A DNA stretch of 64,000 nucleotides, taken from an uncultured Candidatus Saccharibacteria bacterium (lineage in GTDB: Bacteria; Patescibacteriota; Minisyncoccia; Phycocordibacterales; UBA918). This document shows, piece after piece, positions 1 to 12,791 of this stretch. Where the stretch lies: positions 120 to 64,119 of the forward strand of contig CAZKFF010000001.1 in NCBI GenBank assembly GCA_964552045.1, read 5' to 3'. Every line of letters starts with the position of its first letter. Position 1 is the first letter of the stretch. A program made the position numbers and the translations under genes. The notes beneath the pieces were generated by a model, which was not told where the DNA came from, did not search any database, and worked only from the letters and a program-made list of their open reading frames with translations.

Positions 1-30
1 AGTAGATCAATCCACAGCGACGACTACAAA

Positions 31-219
31 ATGATTATAAAGCGCCTCAAAGAGGCGCGCCTTGAAGTTGGTCTATCCCAGCAAGATGTAGCGGACAAAC
101 TTGATAAACCACAATCTTACGTTTCAAAAATTGAGTCTGGTGAGCGGCGTTTGGATGTTGCTGAAATGAAGGCGTTTGCAAAAATTTACAAAAAGCCGTT
201 GGATTACTTCGTGAATTAG
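31..219 (+). CDS. XRE-family helix-turn-helix transcriptional regulator; candidate controller (C) protein of the adjacent restriction-modification system
   Basis: 62 aa with the Cro/C1-type HTH signature (LSQQDVADKL...SYVSKIESG). Lies 4 nt upstream of a co-oriented ORF and is convergent with a DNA MTase, the classic C-R-M layout. Confidence 0.7.
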   Translation: MIIKRLKEARLEVGLSQQDVADKLDKPQSYVSKIESGERRLDVAEMKAFAKIYKKPLDYFVN

Positions 220-223
220 ACCC

Positions 224-922
224 ATGCCTAAGAATAAGAAAGACACAGTTAAAGAATCGATCTCTCTCATAGAGTCTATTGCAAAAAAGAGACAGAGGCT
301 TTCTGTTGAGGAAGCAAGGGTTTTGATTAGTGAAATTACTAAACTCACAAAAATTCTCTTGGTTTCCAGTGGATTCCCTATAAGAGATGTGACCAGACTT
401 ACCACAAAACTTAGGGACGCTGGACGTAGGTCACCCCCGTGGACACCTTATTCAGGTCGAGTTCCGGGCAGACCTCAAGACGGAGCGGATGGCAATCGGC
501 GCTTGAGATGGCTATTTCCAAAAACCCATAAGTTTTATGCTGACGAAATTACAGCGACATTGGTCGAGGTGAAATATTATCTACAAGTACTGTCTATGAC
601 CAATGCGCCCAAGCTCCCAAAAGGTGCATTCGAGGGGACATTTGATTGGCTTGTGAAGCACAAAATATCACCCGGTGCGTATTTAGACCCAATACAGTTG
701 GTTCCAATTGATCTAAAAGTGATTCTTAATGAGTTAAGAAATCTCCACTCAGGGCATTTGGTGCCGCTAGATCGTAGTGGCAAGCATGAGCCAGCGAATA
801 CTTTTCTTGTCTATGCACGAAGTAACCAGCTTCAAGGAAATTTGACGCTAAATGAACTACTCGACTTAATGAAGCGAATCCTAGACAAACACCACAGCGA
901 GCTGCATGACGAGATTATATAG
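224..922 (+). CDS. hypothetical protein; putative type II restriction endonuclease, inferred from context
   Basis: 232-aa intact ORF directly downstream of the C-like HTH gene. Its stop overlaps the stop of the convergent MTase gene. No nuclease motif recognised by eye, so the assignment rests only on the C-R-M arrangement. Confidence 0.35.
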   Translation: MPKNKKDTVKESISLIESIAKKRQRLSVEEARVLISEITKLTKILLVSSGFPIRDVTRLTTKLRDAGRRSPPWTPYSGRVPGRPQDGADGNRRLRWLFPKTHKFYADEITATLVEVKYYLQVLSMTNAPKLPKGAFEGTFDWLVKHKISPGAYLDPIQLVPIDLKVILNELRNLHSGHLVPLDRSGKHEPANTFLVYARSNQLQGNLTLNELLDLMKRILDKHHSELHDEII

Positions 923-2909
923 CTAACACTTCCTCTAGTTCATTTATTCCAGAAGTGAGGTCGTCTATCGCTTTTTGCCGCGCACTCTCCCCGTCCCTTA
1001 TCCTTTTTACAACCTTTTCGTAAACTTTTTTGTCTTTTGGAACTGGAATTTTTAGATTACCAATGTACTCAGGCGTAATCTCATCAATTACAGAACCATA
1101 AACACCACGCGCTATTGTCTCTTGTGCATATCTCGTTTTAAGGAAAGCAAATAAATACTCCGATGCCATTTTTTCTTGGTCGGGAATAACTCTAATTACA
1201 TGTTCTGAAAATGCATAACCGTCCCATGCTTGAGGTACCGTCGAAACAATTCCGACAGAACCGCTTCTGGTAATAAGGATCCAGCCTTTTTTCACTTTCA
1301 ACTCTTCTATCTTTTTATTTTCCAGACTCATCCACTTATCAGCCCGTAATAGGAGTTGAGTGACGTTAGTTCCACCTAAGAAAGGGACGGCTTCTTGACT
1401 TGGCTCAACGTAGTTTCTTGCAAAACGCCCGGGAAAAAAAATATTTTTAACAACATTATTTAGCTCAACGTACTCCCACTGTTTGTTGTGAGTTTTGCTA
1501 GTAGGTTTGACTGCTTTATGTGATTTGTAATAGCGGGCGTCGAATCTCAAAAGAGGGTCTTCACTAATTTGTTTAGGTGTGACCTTGAAGCTAATTTCTG
1601 AACTAAATTTCTTTTTCTTTTTAAAGTTCGAGTAGTCAGCCTCAACAACATGAAAATCACTTAAAATTTGATCTGTAACAGAACCGTCACGCTCTCTAAC
1701 GTATGTAGGATTTCCTCGTCTATCGTGTCCAATCCACTTAGGAGTGGACATGAAGATTTCGGGATCCGAATCTAAATCTATTTGCTCTAAAGGTTTTTTC
1801 CTTCTTTTCAAAACCAGTAGCGACGCTTTAGTCCCAGTGTGAGGCTGAAAAGTTTCTGGCGGCAGATCAACAACAGCTAAAATCTGCGCGTGTCTCAGAA
1901 TCCATTGGCGGACAAAAAGAGTTTGTGGACCAGAAACAATCTGATAAGGAACAACTATTGCCAACCTACCGGCATCAGGTTTAAGAAGTCTTATATTTCT
2001 CTCAATAAACAAAATATCAGGAGCACGCTGTACAACGGCAGACTCGTCACCAAATAAACCAGTCCTCGTATATTTTTTTGCTAAGTCAAATTGAGAAAGG
2101 AGTTCCGGATCTTTGATCGTAATCTTTGTACCAAAAGGAGGGTTGGTTGCGAGGCAGGAATAACTGCTTTCGTTAAGTCTACTTGAGGGATCAATTTTGA
2201 GAGAATCGCCATTAGCAACAAAATCTACATCTTGAGCACCTAGCTGAAACGACATTGTTGAATTTGCTATTTCCGAAAGCTCTTTATCGAGCTCCTGTCC
2301 AGCAATTGACTCTTTTGCAAGTTTTCTTGCTTTTTCTTCATCACCGTCAGCCAGTTTTTTTATGTGTTTGAGTGCTGCCATCAAAAACCCCCCTGTGCCT
2401 GCACAAATATCAGCAAAGTTGTCTCCTTTTAGAGGATTGAAATCAAGTAGCTTTATAGATAATTGGGTGACTCTTTGGTCGGTAAAAAATTGACCTCCAT
2501 TTGATTTCGTCCAGTGTGATCTAAAGATTTCCATTGAGTCGCCAAATACATCTCGTTCGGAAGTGAGGATATCAATGTCAAAGATTTTTTCGTAAACATG
2601 CGCAATGTTTAAGTCAGTGAGATTTATCTCATTTCCATCCTCGTAAAATCTGGACTGCTTATTAGCTGCCCCAAAATTCTTTCTAACAAAGCTTGCTACA
2701 TTCTTCACATCAATAGCCTGACCATTTAATCTATGTCCCCTTGAGGAGAGTGGGGGTTTGTTGATTTTATTCTTCTCGGCATAAGCCAGAGCCCTATATA
2801 TTTTTCCAACCTCCTTAGCAATAGCTGTAGGAACCTTCACCGGAGAATTGGCGTATAGGTAGTCATAAATGGAGTTCACTCGTGATTCAAGATGTATGAT
2901 CGTACTCAT
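915..2909 (-). CDS. N6-adenine DNA methyltransferase (gamma class) with fused C-terminal HsdS-like target recognition domain
   Basis: Motif I DICAGTGGFLMAA and motif IV TNPPFG are present. The C-terminal about 180 aa (GWILITRSGSVGIVSTV...NLKIPVPKD) match the type I specificity-subunit TRD pattern. Start moved to MSTIIHLE (Met-15 of the track ORF), 7 nt after a TATAAT box. Confidence 0.8.
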   Translation of the reverse strand: MSTIIHLESRVNSIYDYLYANSPVKVPTAIAKEVGKIYRALAYAEKNKINKPPLSSRGHRLNGQAIDVKNVASFVRKNFGAANKQSRFYEDGNEINLTDLNIAHVYEKIFDIDILTSERDVFGDSMEIFRSHWTKSNGGQFFTDQRVTQLSIKLLDFNPLKGDNFADICAGTGGFLMAALKHIKKLADGDEEKARKLAKESIAGQELDKELSEIANSTMSFQLGAQDVDFVANGDSLKIDPSSRLNESSYSCLATNPPFGTKITIKDPELLSQFDLAKKYTRTGLFGDESAVVQRAPDILFIERNIRLLKPDAGRLAIVVPYQIVSGPQTLFVRQWILRHAQILAVVDLPPETFQPHTGTKASLLVLKRRKKPLEQIDLDSDPEIFMSTPKWIGHDRRGNPTYVRERDGSVTDQILSDFHVVEADYSNFKKKKKFSSEISFKVTPKQISEDPLLRFDARYYKSHKAVKPTSKTHNKQWEYVELNNVVKNIFFPGRFARNYVEPSQEAVPFLGGTNVTQLLLRADKWMSLENKKIEELKVKKGWILITRSGSVGIVSTVPQAWDGYAFSEHVIRVIPDQEKMASEYLFAFLKTRYAQETIARGVYGSVIDEITPEYIGNLKIPVPKDKKVYEKVVKRIRDGESARQKAIDDLTSGINELEEVLAI

Positions 2910-2920
2910 ACATAAATTAT

Positions 2921-2958
2921 ATGCAAAATTTGCACAATGCAAAATTTGCATTGTGCAT
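2921..2958 (-). promoter_or_regulatory. tandem 14-bp direct repeats (ATGCAAAATTTGCA x2, each near-palindromic) overlapping the -35/spacer of the MTase promoter; candidate operator. TATAAT lies 7 nt upstream of the ATG, suggesting a leaderless mRNA
   Basis: Read directly from the sequence: atgcaaaatttgcaca / atgcaaaatttgcatt, 17 nt apart. On the minus strand it reads tgcaaattttgcaTATAATttatgtATG. Confidence 0.45.
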
Positions 2959-3005
2959 AACTTACTCAGGCAACTTCCTGTAACAAACGGGACATATCCG
3001 GGTCT

Positions 3006-3950
3006 TTACAGAACCTTACCTTTTGACCAGTACTCCTCAAACGCACTGCGAGCATCATCATAATTTTCTGACAAACTCACTTCTGATCGTTGTCCAGCAG
3101 ATATTGCATTCACGTTTGGTACGTTTCTCAGATACCCAACACCATCGAGAATCCATCGATCATGTGTGTCTCGTATCAATTTACTGTCTATAGTTGCCCA
3201 GGTTGTTTTGATACCTTTGTTTTCCATCTCCTGTTTGAACCGTTTGAAGTACCTTCGTACGTCGCTTCCCAAATTTACGTCTCCCATGTCCAAAGATAGA
3301 ATGCGTATTTCTTTTATTTTCTCTGCATCAGCAACACTCCATAACCATTCCAGCGCCTCTTTCTGGAAATGTTTATCGAGCCATGAAATGGATCCCTCAC
3401 ATTCTCCAAGTACTCGCTTTATCCAGAGGATGTTAGAGAATGGTCGCGATGGGTCAATAAAGATATTTTTTGGCGTATGAGGAGTATCGGGTGAGATAAG
3501 TACTTTCACAGCCCTAGTTTTCTTGTTGTAGGTGATAACACCTGCGTAATTCAAGAAGTCTAGGAAATGCGTCAATGGCTCGTTGGAATCATAGAACCAA
3601 AAGCCCGTAGCCTTTAGGACCGTAAGTACTTGATCAACAGTTACGTCCGATACTCCCCACAAATATTGCTGTAATGCAATCGTGGGAGGAAAGGATAGAA
3701 GCAAGTGCCTTAACATCTCGGTTTCCTCTCCATCACGGCGGATGTACAGCGACTCAAATATCGCTCGTCCGGCCTCAGAAAGCTCACCTGTAGCACCGAC
3801 ATCAAAAACTCCAAGCTCTTCCCAGAAAGTATAGTCGTCTCCCAGTTCATACCGATCTACTGAACCGTTCTCACCAGCCGCCTGTATATAAGGCAGCATT
3901 TTCTTCCAGTTATTCTGTGGCAGAAGTGTTGTCGTTTCCGTGTTTATCAT
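3006..3950 (-). CDS. hypothetical protein (island protein B), second gene of a two-gene operon of unknown function
   Basis: 314-aa ORF with AT-rich island composition. It overlaps the upstream ORF by 41 nt. An alternative start at Met-18 (3899) would leave a 10-nt gap. The C-terminal segment THDRWILDGVGYLRNVPNVN loosely resembles a PLD-type HxK..D..N signature but is not canonical. Confidence 0.55.
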   Translation of the reverse strand: MINTETTTLLPQNNWKKMLPYIQAAGENGSVDRYELGDDYTFWEELGVFDVGATGELSEAGRAIFESLYIRRDGEETEMLRHLLLSFPPTIALQQYLWGVSDVTVDQVLTVLKATGFWFYDSNEPLTHFLDFLNYAGVITYNKKTRAVKVLISPDTPHTPKNIFIDPSRPFSNILWIKRVLGECEGSISWLDKHFQKEALEWLWSVADAEKIKEIRILSLDMGDVNLGSDVRRYFKRFKQEMENKGIKTTWATIDSKLIRDTHDRWILDGVGYLRNVPNVNAISAGQRSEVSLSENYDDARSAFEEYWSKGKVL

Positions 3951-4707
3951 TTTCCTTTGGCTTTGCGTCTGTTACTGCTTTGTCCAGTGCTGCGATCTCA
4001 CTTCCAAACTTTCCGATGGCAAATAAGTACGCGATTTCTGTAGGGTAAGAAATTACAATACCGCTCGGTAACTCGACTTCCTGCATCCCCGTTTTAACTT
4101 GACGTTCTGACTTCTCTGCTCCAAACCGCTGTGATTGCGAGTGTTCACTATTGTCGGTTTCTTCGTCTGTCGTATCTGCCGTGTCTTTAGAGATGGCCTC
4201 ACTAACAATGCCGTTAGAGTACAAGCCTGCAAATTCAAGAGAATCCTTGAATGTTTGCACTACAGTATCGGCAACCTTGCGGCCTATTCCGAATTGTCTG
4301 ACAAGAATGTTGTTAAGAGTAGGAGGAACTGCACGTCCCGAATATTCACTGATGAGAGACTCAAACAACTTCGGATGCTTCGCCGCCTCTAATATTGCAG
4401 CATTTTTCTCCTCCTCTGTTGTATAATGAAGTATCTGCTCAGCAAGATCAGAGTTCTTATATGCGTTACCTTTGCGCTCTAAGAGTCCGTAATGTACCAG
4501 AGCTGCAACTTTAGGGGCTGAAGCACCGCTAAGCGTTGCGTAACCCATAGAAACAGCTGCAGAAGCCCGGTCAAACTGAGATTTAGGATAAGCAGCGATA
4601 AGTTTCTTACTGTACTCAACAGCTTCACCAAGAGGGATGGCGGGGTACGCTGTGCTCCGTTCTCTCTTTGTAGTCTTCTTCGCCTCTGTATTTTGATTGT
4701 CAGTCAT
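3910..4707 (-). CDS. hypothetical protein (island protein A), first gene of the two-gene operon
   Basis: 265 aa from MTDNQNTEAKK; the track ORF extends 7 codons further. Acidic C-terminal tail and no recognisable motif. Co-oriented with and overlapping the downstream ORF. Confidence 0.55.
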   Translation of the reverse strand: MTDNQNTEAKKTTKRERSTAYPAIPLGEAVEYSKKLIAAYPKSQFDRASAAVSMGYATLSGASAPKVAALVHYGLLERKGNAYKNSDLAEQILHYTTEEEKNAAILEAAKHPKLFESLISEYSGRAVPPTLNNILVRQFGIGRKVADTVVQTFKDSLEFAGLYSNGIVSEAISKDTADTTDEETDNSEHSQSQRFGAEKSERQVKTGMQEVELPSGIVISYPTEIAYLFAIGKFGSEIAALDKAVTDAKPKENDKHGNDNTSATE

Positions 4708-4914
4708 AATAATTTTATTTAATCCCATTCCAGTTGGGAGTTTTGTAATACTTAAAATATACTCTCTGTACTATATGCTTGTCAAGCGCAATCTTTACTT
4801 TGTGAAAAATGCCAGAATAACCCAGTAAAGTAGCCATTTTTATATCTATAAGAAACGAGTTACAAAGCGACATGCACCATATTTTTTGTAGTACAGAAAA
4901 GTCTTTGGGTACTT

Positions 4915-5775
4915 TGTAACATGGGGAGCAACCCCGCCCGCCAGGGCGGGGTTTGTGCGCGCACGGGTGGGAGCCGTGAACACGGCATGGGGCAAGCACA
5001 TAAGGCAGCGCCGTCGGGCTATTTCCGCTAGGAGCGTCCAGGGCTAAAGGACGAGCGCCGACGTTAATTTGCAATACAGAAATCTAGCAGCGGAAGCGAC
5101 ACCACAAACGCGCTATTGAAAACGAGGATGGGGGTTGTGCGAGGGCGGACTCCGAAGGCACGTTAAACGAAGCCGCAAAGCGCAAGTAAAGTACAAACGC
5201 AATGAAGCACTGAAGACGCTAATGAATCACTGCGAGGAGGAGCCCGACGCTGGGGGAAGGATTCCTTCCTTCCCCCAATCTAGTGTCCTGCCTTTTCCAC
5301 CGCCCCGCAGGGCGGAATGGAAAAGAAAAGCAGGACCCATAGGCACCTAGGCGCTCGTAGCCCTAGCGGAAATAGCCCGAGGCGGATGCCGAGGGTGCCT
5401 CCCTTTAGCCTCTGGACTACCATAGAAATCTAGGAAATGGCACGAGGCACCGAATTGGAAGCGCCTTCCTTCTTCCACGTTTAGTGGAAGAACGCCCGGA
5501 AGAAAAAATCCTTTTCCATATCCAAAAAAATATCCCCCGCCAAAAAAGAAAAAGGAATACTGCAAAGGATTTTTCTGGAGGGCGTACCGCCGGAACGGAG
5601 TGGAGGCGGAAGGAGGCGCGTATCGAGTTACCACGCAAGCGGAGCGTACGATTCGGTCTCAAGCCACCACGCGCTCCGCGCGGGCGGATCACTTCTCGCT
5701 ACGCTCGAAAAAAGTTCGGATTTCATCATATAGACGGAGCTGAGGAATTTAGGAACCCCGCGCACGCGGGGTTTT
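4915..5775. ncRNA. candidate structured non-coding RNA region of unassigned class (GC-rich, ORF-poor, multiple stable hairpins)
   Basis: No credible ORF, only overlapping Arg-rich junk ORFs on both strands. Hairpins at 4926-4956 (10 bp), 5273-5297 (10 bp), 5306-5322 and 5468-5486. An intrinsic terminator on the + strand at about 5748-5775 closes the region. Weak, inconclusive similarity to the RNase P P4 region (AGAACGCCCGGAAGA). Confidence 0.25.
5748..5775 (+). terminator. rho-independent terminator (aaccccgcgcacgcggggttttt)
   Basis: 8-bp GC-rich stem with a 4-nt loop, followed by a run of 5 T. Confidence 0.6.
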
Positions 5776-5832
5776 TAAATTTCTGAAGCTCCGGCGGAGA
5801 AAGCAACCGAGTTGCTTTCGTCAGGATTCGAA

Positions 5833-5878
5833 AGGAATTTGCATATTTCCGCTATTCCTAATGCGGAAATGCAAATTC
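5833..5878. repeat. long imperfect inverted repeat (17-19 bp arms, 10-nt spacer): ggaatttgcatatttccgc-tattcctaat-gcggaaatgcaaattcc
   Basis: Read directly from the sequence. The right arm is the reverse complement of the left arm apart from a 2-nt bulge. Confidence 0.7.
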
Positions 5879-5951
5879 CCGGGCAGGTAAATCTTATGAA
5901 TGTAACGAATTAGATTTGGACGCCGAATCCTGCCGCCGGAGCCAAACAGGG

Positions 5952-5986
5952 CGAGACTTCCGATTTCGGGAGTCTTTTTCTTTATT
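5952..5986 (+). terminator. rho-independent terminator-like hairpin (agacttccg-attt-cgggagtct) followed by ttttctttattt
   Basis: 9-bp stem containing one G-U pair, then a T-rich tract. Lies about 140 nt upstream of the 6123 gene. Confidence 0.4.
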
Positions 5987-6122
5987 TGAACCGTCATTGA
6001 AGAATTCGAAAATCTGAATGGATGATTTTATTGACTGGATCCTGTAAGTTTCGAAATTCATGCCGCCCGTCCAATTCACACTGATCCAGTAAAAAGACGG
6101 TTTTGTGTGCTATTTTTAAGCC

Positions 6123-7295
6123 ATGAGGAAATTCTTCCTGCTGTTTGGGTTTCTCGCACTCCTTCTTTTGTTGTCAGCGCTGTATCTTCTCTGGGGAAGA
6201 TCACCCGCGGAAACACTGCCCACTTATTTTTCATATACTGATGAAGAACTTCAGATGATCCGTGGTCTCCATTCAGATAAGGCCATCACATTTGAAGATC
6301 TCCAGGCATGGGACGACGCCATCTTCAATCTGATCCAGGAGAACAAGACCGGTACAACAAAGGCCTCGCAGATATATACGTATCTTCTGGTGGCACAGCG
6401 CGATGCAGCTTTCATATCCTATAACGATACCGGCAAATTCCGCGGGAGCATTGATGCAGTTTCCAAGGGGGTTATCTGCGCATTCATGCCTGATGATTGC
6501 CTCTATATCACAACAGACAGCGATGCATATTCTGATGCGCTCGCTCAGATCGTGCTCGCTAAGGTCGAAAAGCGAATCGCGGATGACCAAAGCCAGCTGC
6601 ATACATATCCGCTGCAGTCAGAGGATCCCTATTGGTTGAACAAACGCGATGAAGCATTCAACGGACAGGACGTCGGATCATGGATGCCCTGGTCGATCGC
6701 CTCAGTTGCTGATTTCAATCTGCCTCCCCCGCCGGAGCTTGGTTCGGATGAACGAGCGCAGCAGCTGCAGGAAGTGCGGGATGCGGTTGACGGCATCACT
6801 GACGAACAGAAGCGTGCTGTTATCTATTGGGCTGACGGCCCGGGCACGAAGACCGCAGCGGCACAATGGCTCGAATTGGCAACTACGCACATGAAGGAAA
6901 CTGGCATGACCGACCTCCGTAGAATATTCATGATCAGATCGATCCTTGAGATGGCCATTGCTGACACGATCATCGCTTCTCACGATGTCAAATACACCTA
7001 CTGGGAGCGGCGCCCGGGCTCGCTCGATGCATCAATCGTGACGGTCATACCGACTCCGAACCATCCGAGCTATCCGTCAAACAGCGCAGCGATCGGCATG
7101 ACTGCGGCAACGGTCATGGCATACTTCTTCCCTGAAAAGTCATCAGAATGGCTCAGCATTGCCGAGGAAATAGGCAATACGCGCGTATGGTCCGGCATAC
7201 ACTTCCCACTTGACGTACAGGAGGGCTATGCACAGGGGAAAAAGATCGCCGAAGCGGTGCTCCAGAAAGAATTCGGGGACAGCCAGCCTCAGTAA
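6123..7295 (+). CDS. secreted PAP2-superfamily protein (acid phosphatase / vanadium-haloperoxidase-like)
   Basis: N-terminal signal/TM segment. PAP2 motifs present: KYTYWERRP (KX6RP), PSYPS and RVWSGIHFPLD (RX5HX3D). Confidence 0.7.
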   Translation: MRKFFLLFGFLALLLLLSALYLLWGRSPAETLPTYFSYTDEELQMIRGLHSDKAITFEDLQAWDDAIFNLIQENKTGTTKASQIYTYLLVAQRDAAFISYNDTGKFRGSIDAVSKGVICAFMPDDCLYITTDSDAYSDALAQIVLAKVEKRIADDQSQLHTYPLQSEDPYWLNKRDEAFNGQDVGSWMPWSIASVADFNLPPPPELGSDERAQQLQEVRDAVDGITDEQKRAVIYWADGPGTKTAAAQWLELATTHMKETGMTDLRRIFMIRSILEMAIADTIIASHDVKYTYWERRPGSLDASIVTVIPTPNHPSYPSNSAAIGMTAATVMAYFFPEKSSEWLSIAEEIGNTRVWSGIHFPLDVQEGYAQGKKIAEAVLQKEFGDSQPQ

Positions 7296-12227: not shown

Positions 12228-12791
12228 ATGAGGTATGACATGCCTTCCAAAACACGGCCAAAGCCTGCCTTCGCCTCACTTGCAGAAGCGGCAGAAGCAC
12301 AGAAGCGCATCGGGACATTGTTGCGGCAGATACACGCATGTGAAGATCAGTTTGAAAAGGAACGGGAAGTCATAGACAAGAAGGAAGACGACGCCATCCG
12401 TCCACTGCAGGCAGAAGCGCTGGAGCTCGGCAAACAGGTCTATGCGTTCGCCGTACAGCACAAAACCGAGCTTACCGACGGCGGCACACACAAGACCGTG
12501 AAACTTCCGATGCGCGCCGGCTCCTTCGCATGGTACACCACCCCTCCGGCGATCACGATCGAGAACGCACAGGAGGTGCTGCAGCGCATCAAGGAACTCG
12601 GCCTGCTGCGGTTCGTCAGGACCAAAGAGGAAGTGAACAGAGAGGCACTCCTCCAGGAACACACAATCGCCTCCACGATCGCGGGCGTGACAGTGTCCCG
12701 GCAGGACAAGTTCGCCATAAAACCAACCGGCGTCAAAGTACGACTTGAGTGCAATACGAAGACCAAGCGCTGGAAGATCGCCCTCCCGTAA
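12228..12791 (+). CDS. phage Mu Gam-like DNA-end-binding protein (Ku-like host-nuclease inhibitor family)
   Basis: From memory, ELTDGGTHKTVKL...LGLLRFVRTKEEVNREALLQE...IAGVTV aligns residue-for-residue with Mu Gam (ELTNGGKVKTANL...LGLQRFIRTKQEINKEAILLEP...VAGITV). Confidence 0.75.
   Translation: MRYDMPSKTRPKPAFASLAEAAEAQKRIGTLLRQIHACEDQFEKEREVIDKKEDDAIRPLQAEALELGKQVYAFAVQHKTELTDGGTHKTVKLPMRAGSFAWYTTPPAITIENAQEVLQRIKELGLLRFVRTKEEVNREALLQEHTIASTIAGVTVSRQDKFAIKPTGVKVRLECNTKTKRWKIALP

Follow-up and report, generated by a model that had tools for sequence, protein, structure and literature searches.

The 64,000-nt stretch of the genome of an uncultured Candidatus Saccharibacteria bacterium that was analysed here, in the following denoted as the window, harbors two overlapping genes on its minus strand, A and B, which are reported as a candidate two-gene nuclease module. 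The initial annotation had described them as co-oriented open reading frames (ORFs) of about 265 and about 314 amino acids with a 41-nt overlap, and this layout was found again in full (Table 1). Protein B combines two predicted winged-helix units with a C-terminal domain of the PLD fold, whereas protein A is predicted to be a DNA-binding protein, and both genes are found side by side in 29 of 30 distinct loci in which the upstream region of B is intact.

The A-B operon

Counted from its first ATG, the ORF of A comprises 272 residues. In an alignment of the window protein with 30 homologues (n = 31) Met-8 is the first invariant residue, and A therefore probably starts at the corresponding ATG at position 4707, leading to a protein of 265 residues. 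For B, a start at Met-18 had been considered as an alternative, by which the two genes would be separated by 10 nt. This start is excluded by three observations: residues 10–16 (LPxxxWK), located upstream of Met-18, are conserved in the homologues with P11 and W15 present in at least 90% of them, an AAGGA ribosome-binding site lies in front of the first ATG, and the homologous gene pairs of other genomes overlap by 26–44 nt as well. Hence, B starts at the ATG at position 3950, and the overlap with A suggests translational coupling of the two genes. Directly upstream of A the best sigma-70-like site within positions 2700–6200 is found. As the methyltransferase gene M downstream of B possesses a promoter-like site of its own together with palindromes, A and B constitute a separate bicistronic unit.

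Table 1. Positions of the features discussed in the text, numbered from the first nucleotide of the window.
Feature	Position	Strand	Remarks
C	31..219	+	controller-like helix-turn-helix gene; HTH_3 (E 5.5e-17), weak PADLOC Control_protein match (E 1.5e-5)
R	224..922	+	putative restriction endonuclease; convergent with M
M	915..2951	-	N6-adenine methyltransferase with one fused Methylase_S (target recognition) domain; Pfam N6_Mtase 3e-26, Methylase_S 1.6e-10; PADLOC MTase_II
Promoter-like site of M	2916-2943	-	M's own
Tandem palindromes	2921-2957		probable operator
B	3006..3950	-	314 amino acids
B residues 156-314	3009..3485	-	C-terminal alpha/beta domain, MIT_C-like / PB-PLD1-like PLD domain
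HDR codons of B	3156..3164	-	His263-Asp264-Arg265; motif replacing canonical HxK
B residues 1-155	3486..3950	-	two helical/winged-helix units (about 15-150 in the model), presumed DNA-binding
A/B overlap	3910..3950	-	41 nt, end of A over start of B
A	3910..4728	-	272 amino acids from first ATG; probably 265 from ATG at 4707
Ribosome-binding site of B	~3953-3957	-	AAGGA, 3-7 nt before the ATG
Promoter-like site of A	4756..4785	-	TTGACA-18-TATATT, 11/12 matches
Conserved RNA element	4945-5410	+	~470 nt; closing helix 4991-5032 with 5362-5403
Mu Gam-like gene	12228-12791	+	Phage_Mu_Gam (E 6e-26)

Predicted folds of proteins A and B

No family could be named for either protein in the initial annotation, and this still holds for Pfam, NCBIfam, PADLOC and PHROGs. 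Neither A nor B gives a match at a useful threshold in Pfam or PHROGs, and searches of the PDB sequences with the profiles of both proteins yielded no match. B has 203 homologues in a database clustered at 90%, and its profile finds 577 matches with an expectation value (E) of at most 1e-3 among 1.84 billion representatives.

The AlphaFold model of B (predicted local distance difference test, pLDDT, 89) depicts two N-terminal helical/winged-helix units followed by a domain with the PLD alpha/beta fold. Structural comparison of this domain gave values of 13.4 for both Nuc and FAM83A, 12.8 for NucT, 12.6 for SauUSI, 11.8 for Zucchini, 11.5 for TrmBL2 and 11.2 for MITD1, the latter having the lowest root-mean-square deviation and the highest identity among the structures compared. 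The resemblance of the C-terminus of B to a PLD nuclease signature, pointed out initially, thus proves correct in substance: the stretch KLIRDTHDRWIL...NVPNVN is the core of the PLD-fold domain, with an arginine replacing the canonical lysine. The complete HxK(x)4D(x)6GSxN motif is not present, and H263-D-R265-W-I-L-D-G...R-N276-V-P-N-V-N is found in its place.

The His-Asp-Arg (HDR) motif is invariant across 34 homologues of B, and in 118 divergent members of the domain family His, Asp and Arg are present in 99%, 92% and 99%, respectively. Near-invariant positions in these members are P170, N173, W190, D/E192, F195, E241, H263, D264, R265, N276, P278, G286 and E290. The acidic residue 192 (Asp in 86%, Glu in 13%) follows strand 186–191, and H263-D264-R265 precedes strand 266–268. 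An acidic residue after strand 2 and a His-Asp-Arg triad before strand 5 represent the published signature of the PB-PLD1 or MIT_C domains (PMC12065111), and both elements of this definition are present in B. Among Pfam families MIT_C (PF16565) is the one most often weakly matched, namely by 14 of 122 domain-family members with a best E of 1.2e-4, which is below the usual cut-offs, and PLDc_2 is weakly matched by two of the 122. B itself gives no match to MIT_C at E ≤ 1, and an hhalign comparison of the B profile with an approximate MITD1 sequence was not significant.

In the literature, the HDR-type PLD domain is placed in defence effectors, namely Menshen NsnC, BrxL and Druantia DruE, and a 2026 preprint describes the MITD1-like PLD domains of DruE as forming an active nuclease site, whose Asp and Arg are needed for defence. 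Neither A nor B belongs to a housekeeping family, which would have spoken against the initial proposal, and B ends in the domain type of these effectors. B is a predicted nuclease. Like B, the PB-PLD1 or MIT_C-like domains (C-termini of NsnC and BrxL, DruE, MITD1) combine the PLD fold with an acid of the D192 type and the HDR motif, and they are used as C-terminal effectors of defence proteins. In contrast to B with its winged helices, their N-terminal partners are an inactive PIN domain, an AAA+/Lon module or a helicase, and their gene set comprises ParB/DUF262 and ABC ATPase proteins instead of a BrxA-like partner. It should be noted that B stays below every Pfam threshold, and that it is likened to PB-PLD1 by the published motif and not by a PB-PLD1 profile. 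The single-motif HKD nucleases (Nuc, NucT, Zucchini, BfiI, NgoAVII R and SauUSI) retain the Lys of HxK, whereas B has Arg and has lost the (x)4D spacing. Furthermore, B lacks a signal peptide or membrane anchor, and its DNA-binding units are predicted winged helices in place of the B3-like or helicase modules of these enzymes.

Domains of the B type are also located at the C-terminus of GmrSD_N/DUF262 proteins (6 of 122), of SNF2 helicases (3) and of one BpuJI_N protein, all of which are restriction-type architectures. A Snf2-associated nuclease from Halomonas was set aside as a parallel, since its nuclease belongs to the PD-(D/E)xK type.

For A, 46 homologues were found. Its predicted model (pLDDT 82) begins with a disordered N-terminus, which is followed by a winged helix (residues ~30–100), a helical unit (105–167), a disordered acidic linker (~181–207), a small folded unit made up of a β-hairpin and two helices (215–255) and a short disordered tail. 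The long acidic tail noted initially thus exists as an acidic stretch, its position however being that of a linker in front of a further folded unit. According to the model, A may have a BrxA-like multi-winged-helix fold and is a predicted DNA binder. Compared to BrxA (DUF1819) and the DUF4007/SspB-type proteins with multiple winged helices, A additionally contains the acidic linker and the C-terminal mini-domain, and the BrxA/DUF1819 profile (PF08849) matches neither the window protein nor any of the 31 family members at E ≤ 1. In hhalign, the N-terminal half of A can be aligned in register with that of B, but the alignment is not significant (E 0.04, probability 1%), and a homology between them was therefore dropped. 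A distant A-like protein of 299 residues with a different C-terminus is encoded in Methyloligella halotolerans (L043, 3937–9927), where it stands by itself next to an IS1595 transposase and a DUF3800 gene; the island that holds them interrupts a comM/Mg-chelatase gene. Since the A-like gene stands alone there, it is uninformative with respect to B.

Distribution and genomic surroundings

The conservation of the pair was assessed in 30 distinct loci with an intact upstream region, obtained from seven loci with gene tables and from a scan of one genome per species. In all 30 of them a co-oriented gene of about 240–300 amino acids abuts or overlaps B. This gene is a homologue of A by hidden Markov model match in 22 loci and by profile-profile comparison (94%, E 1e-7) in five; two more show a weak match with the same layout, and in the remaining one the upstream gene was not assigned to A. 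An A-like gene consequently adjoins B in 29 of the 30 loci, in nearly all cases with an overlap, so that the co-occurrence called for initially is borne out across at least four phyla. The distribution is sporadic and comprises many classes of Patescibacteria, Actinomycetota (Mycolicibacterium, Microbacterium, Nocardioides, Terrabacter, Asanoa and Phytoactinopolyspora), one metagenome-assembled genome (MAG) of Blastocatellia (Acidobacteriota) and one of Thermotogae (Thermotogota). Searches of IMG/VR viral contigs, GenBank phages and PLSDB plasmids gave no relative of B. In Mycolicibacterium boenickei the two genes alone are inserted between cwsA and the gyrA region, and A-B therefore needs no linked partner.

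Within 2 kb of the pair in the 30 loci, 135 ORFs were compared with Pfam. The families recovered most often are N6_Mtase (4 ORFs), Zn_ribbon_recom/Resolvase/Recombinase (3–4), Methylase_S (3), Phage_integrase (3) and EcoRI_methylase (2), and further neighbours are EcoRI, TrwC, a GmrSD_N/HNH protein with a methylase, large serine recombinases and tyrosine integrases. For these neighbours, PADLOC gives matching restriction-modification (R-M) models. The large serine recombinases are located about 250 nt upstream of A-B in three loci. At least four unrelated types are represented among the methyltransferases, which also differ in orientation; this disfavours a fixed three-gene system of A, B and M. 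Together with the type I HsdR and Shedu proteins described below, these genes provide the defence-gene neighbourhood that the initial annotation had asked to be checked. BrxC, PglX, PglZ and BrxB are absent from the commonest neighbours in the 30 loci and from the locus gene tables. An analogy of A-B to BrxA-BrxB was rejected, as BrxB is an inactive STAND ATPase and not a PLD protein.

Two side observations concern individual loci. A small DUF378 gene lies 2.5–3.5 kb from A-B in three differing contexts in Patescibacteria (L003, 11452–11646; L006, 4374–4583; L008, 5408–5605), which may be a coincidence or reflect a shared insertion region. In L026, the segments 1–1991 and 5202–7192 form a perfect inverted duplication of 1991 nt that brackets A-B and reaches the end of the contig. 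It is most likely an assembly fold-back artefact and was not accepted as a pair of real terminal repeats.

The window itself is chromosomal, with rpoB and rpoC at 55.5–62.5 kb. The AT-richer segment of about 4750 nt noticed initially stands out clearly: the G+C fraction of positions 1–4750 is 0.421, compared to 0.520 in the remainder, and none of the 237 sliding windows (mean 0.517, standard deviation 0.02) lies below this stretch. Apart from A-B it contains the genes C, R and M, whose description as a C-R-M system fits; C and M match their families, and R gives a weak HNH-like signal. R has no Pfam, NCBIfam or PADLOC match, and its residues 173–225 weakly match HNH and endonuclease VII families of PHROGs (E 0.004–0.5); it may represent an uncharacterised family of restriction endonucleases. 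Two 13-nt palindromes in tandem (TGCAAATTTTGCA-like, forming a perfect 13+13 inverted repeat) overlap both the promoter-like site of M and its annotated start. They are probably an operator, in which case the true start of M is probably Met-15, near position 2909. Elsewhere in the window a Mu Gam-like gene is embedded amid genes for sensor kinases; it may derive from a prophage or may encode a host protein that binds DNA ends.

On the opposite side of the island, the gap of 1.4 kb upstream of A (4729–6122) is GC-rich and contains no long ORF. It folds much better than shuffled controls (z = -9.4) and harbors a conserved RNA element, the core of which is also found upstream of A-B in a Minisyncoccia MAG. 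An exact 21-mer of this core (5122–5143) recurs in over 120 metagenome contigs. The 78 distinct homologues are 54–82% identical to the window across 522 nt, and many of the copies are located close to a contig end. Of the 52 pairs in the consensus calculated with RNAalifold, 19 carry compensatory changes on both sides, there are 330 G-U against 32 A-C pairs, and the plus strand folds better than its reverse complement. For these three reasons the element is, on the evidence of the alignment, a genuine structured RNA of the plus strand. Rfam gave no match for the element of the window, for that of L017 or for those of eight metagenome loci. It may be an undescribed RNA of the candidate phyla radiation, or a known RNA that has diverged very strongly.

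The flank 5′ of the RNA, which in the window is the side of A-B, is variable in other contigs (loci L044–L160) and rich in defence and mobility genes. These are a fusion of LexA_DNA_bind, Peptidase_S24 and N6_N4_Mtase (about 21 loci), large serine recombinases (7), N6 methyltransferases with an S domain (6), and type I HsdR, EcoRI-like methylase and Shedu SduA_C proteins (5 each). From its gene content the flank looks like a defence or integration hotspot. Since the equivalent flank elsewhere carries defence and recombinase genes, the A-B island appears to sit in this hotspot, which lends independent support to the premise of a defence island. In L049 and about 20 similar loci the fusion protein comprises a complete LexA-like repressor, with DNA-binding domain and S24 self-cleaving peptidase, joined to an N4/N6 methyltransferase, which suggests that presence or activity of the methylase is tied to the SOS response. 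Finally, a 22-nt sequence (AAGCCACCACGCGCTCCGCGCG) at 5661–5682 of the window is identical to 5362–5383 of L026, a distant MAG, where it is located about 570 nt from the A-B pair; looser similarity extends for about 70 nt onward. It is possibly an attachment site or a regulatory element.

Proposed function and rival explanations

Gene order, overlap, conservation of the pair, fold, active-site-like residues, domain fusions and neighbourhood are compatible with A-B being an autonomous nuclease module of two genes that moves horizontally and serves to defend against foreign DNA or to exclude it. We give this interpretation about an even chance of being right. In such a module B would be the effector, which holds DNA by its two N-terminal winged-helix units. 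His263 would act as the nucleophile of the PLD domain with Arg265 in place of the lysine, and Asn276 together with nearby Asn residues, Asp192 and Glu290 would support His263 in the active site. As in other single-motif PLD nucleases, B would dimerise so that two single-motif PLD domains form a shared active site for the cleavage of nucleic acid. A, sharing the transcript and presumably coupled in translation, would bind DNA and dock on B by its linker-tethered C-terminal unit, either restraining B until a trigger occurs or directing it to target DNA; A possibly also represses the operon. Self-protection would come from A or from the need for a foreign feature such as modified DNA or a particular structure. 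Methylation is not envisaged in this role, because most loci are devoid of a linked methyltransferase.

With regard to sensing, A-B can be compared with the type IV system GmrSD. Relatives of the B domain replace the DUF1524 nuclease at the C-terminus of GmrSD_N/DUF262 proteins, and like GmrSD the A-B pair has no obligatory methyltransferase. Unlike GmrSD, B does not contain a DUF262/ParB-like NTPase domain, and sensing would fall to the winged helices or to A. A more specific version of the defence interpretation is put forward tentatively, as we hold it to be possible rather than probable: a hitherto unrecognised, self-contained immune system, mainly of Patescibacteria and Actinomycetota, in which a BrxA-like sensor licenses an HDR PLD nuclease with no methyltransferase involved. 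If true, restriction would here proceed by a new and minimal mechanism, type IV-like or structure-sensing, and no simpler natural setting would exist for studying the MIT_C-type PLD nuclease of BREX, Druantia, Menshen and human MITD1.

Several points weigh against a defence nuclease. Neither protein matches any family at E ≤ 1 in PADLOC v2 or NCBIfam 20. The lysine of HxK is exchanged for arginine in 99% of the 118 divergent domain members and the spacing to the Asp is not conserved, and the MIT_C domain of eukaryotic MITD1 has been described as a membrane binder and not as an enzyme. In about half of the 30 loci, the 2 kb around the pair contain nothing recognisable as a defence or mobility gene, and plain housekeeping genes are among the neighbours in some. 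Moreover, the census comprises 30 loci with crude ORF calls and no formal background model.

Among the rival explanations the one that survives best, though unlikely, is a toxin-antitoxin-like addiction module, in which B would be a DNA-damaging toxin and A an antitoxin and autorepressor, the pair stabilising the island; this overlaps with defence by abortive infection. The gene layout is compatible with type II toxin-antitoxin systems, as a winged-helix gene overlaps a downstream enzyme gene behind a single promoter. The same two-gene layout is known from AbiEi/AbiEii, where an upstream winged-helix gene overlaps an enzyme gene of about 300 codons; the effector of these AbiE-like modules is a nucleotidyltransferase in contrast to the PLD-fold protein B, and no sequence relationship exists. 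Also in line with addiction, A evolves faster than B (29% and 38% identity, respectively, between window and Mycolicibacterium), recombinases lie upstream in the three loci mentioned, and the pair stands alone in M. boenickei. However, A and B are far larger than classical type II toxin-antitoxin proteins, B carries predicted DNA-binding units of its own, and the fusion partners GmrSD_N, SNF2 and BpuJI_N are of the restriction type and not of the toxin-antitoxin type. The plasmid and phage collections searched gave no match, although addiction modules abound in such elements.

The abundance of winged helices in A and B would also suit a pair of regulators or chromatin proteins that bind DNA and whose PLD-like domain binds a ligand and is not catalytic, as is the case for TrmB and TrmBL2. 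This is clearly improbable considering that H, D, R, N and E are near-invariant at the PLD catalytic positions of the divergent members and that the domain is fused to restriction-type modules. In addition, a Pfam TrmB match is missing, and the sporadic, island-borne distribution is atypical of metabolic regulators.

Very improbable is likewise that A and B serve the neighbouring R-M system as accessory subunits or as an alternative nuclease, in one three-gene unit with M that would resemble BREX or type I systems. The three genes are co-oriented with a spacing of 54 nt between B and M, M weakly resembles MAD2 and MAD5 of MADS, A has a BrxA-like predicted fold, and methyltransferases are the commonest neighbour family. 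Against these points stand the promoter-like site and operator-like palindromes of M itself, its C-R partner in the window, the unrelated types and differing orientations of the adjacent methyltransferases, and the majority of loci, M. boenickei included, that have no methyltransferase at all. A mobility function, by which a DNA-cutting and a DNA-targeting protein would move or integrate the island itself, is suggested by the recombinase, integrase and relaxase neighbours, the clean insertion between core genes in M. boenickei and the patchy spread across phyla, but is extremely improbable, as no terminal repeats were found around the pair in the window, the sole apparent flanking inverted repeat is most likely the artefact in L026, no multiple copies of A-B were seen inside one genome, and PLD nucleases are not known to act as transposases.

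Returning to defence as the preferred function, the computational checks suggested initially all spoke for the proposal and none of them refuted it. The proposal of a candidate undescribed defence module stands for the two-gene system and does not extend to its components: the PLD domain type has been described since 2025 and the BrxA-like fold is likewise known. The combination of A and B corresponds to no system in PADLOC v2 or NCBIfam 20 and was not found in the literature searched. If A-B defends cells, it would be a compact two-gene addition to the known defence repertoire, carried by lineages (candidate phyla radiation and actinomycetes) in which immunity has been little charted and is poorly captured by current detection tools. 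Moreover, it would be the smallest known context for the HDR variant of the PLD nuclease, a domain for which catalysis in BREX BrxL, Menshen and Druantia has only recently been proposed and which also occurs in the human cytokinesis protein MITD1. Owing to the actinobacterial copies, for instance those of Mycolicibacterium and Microbacterium, the pair can be tested in culturable hosts.

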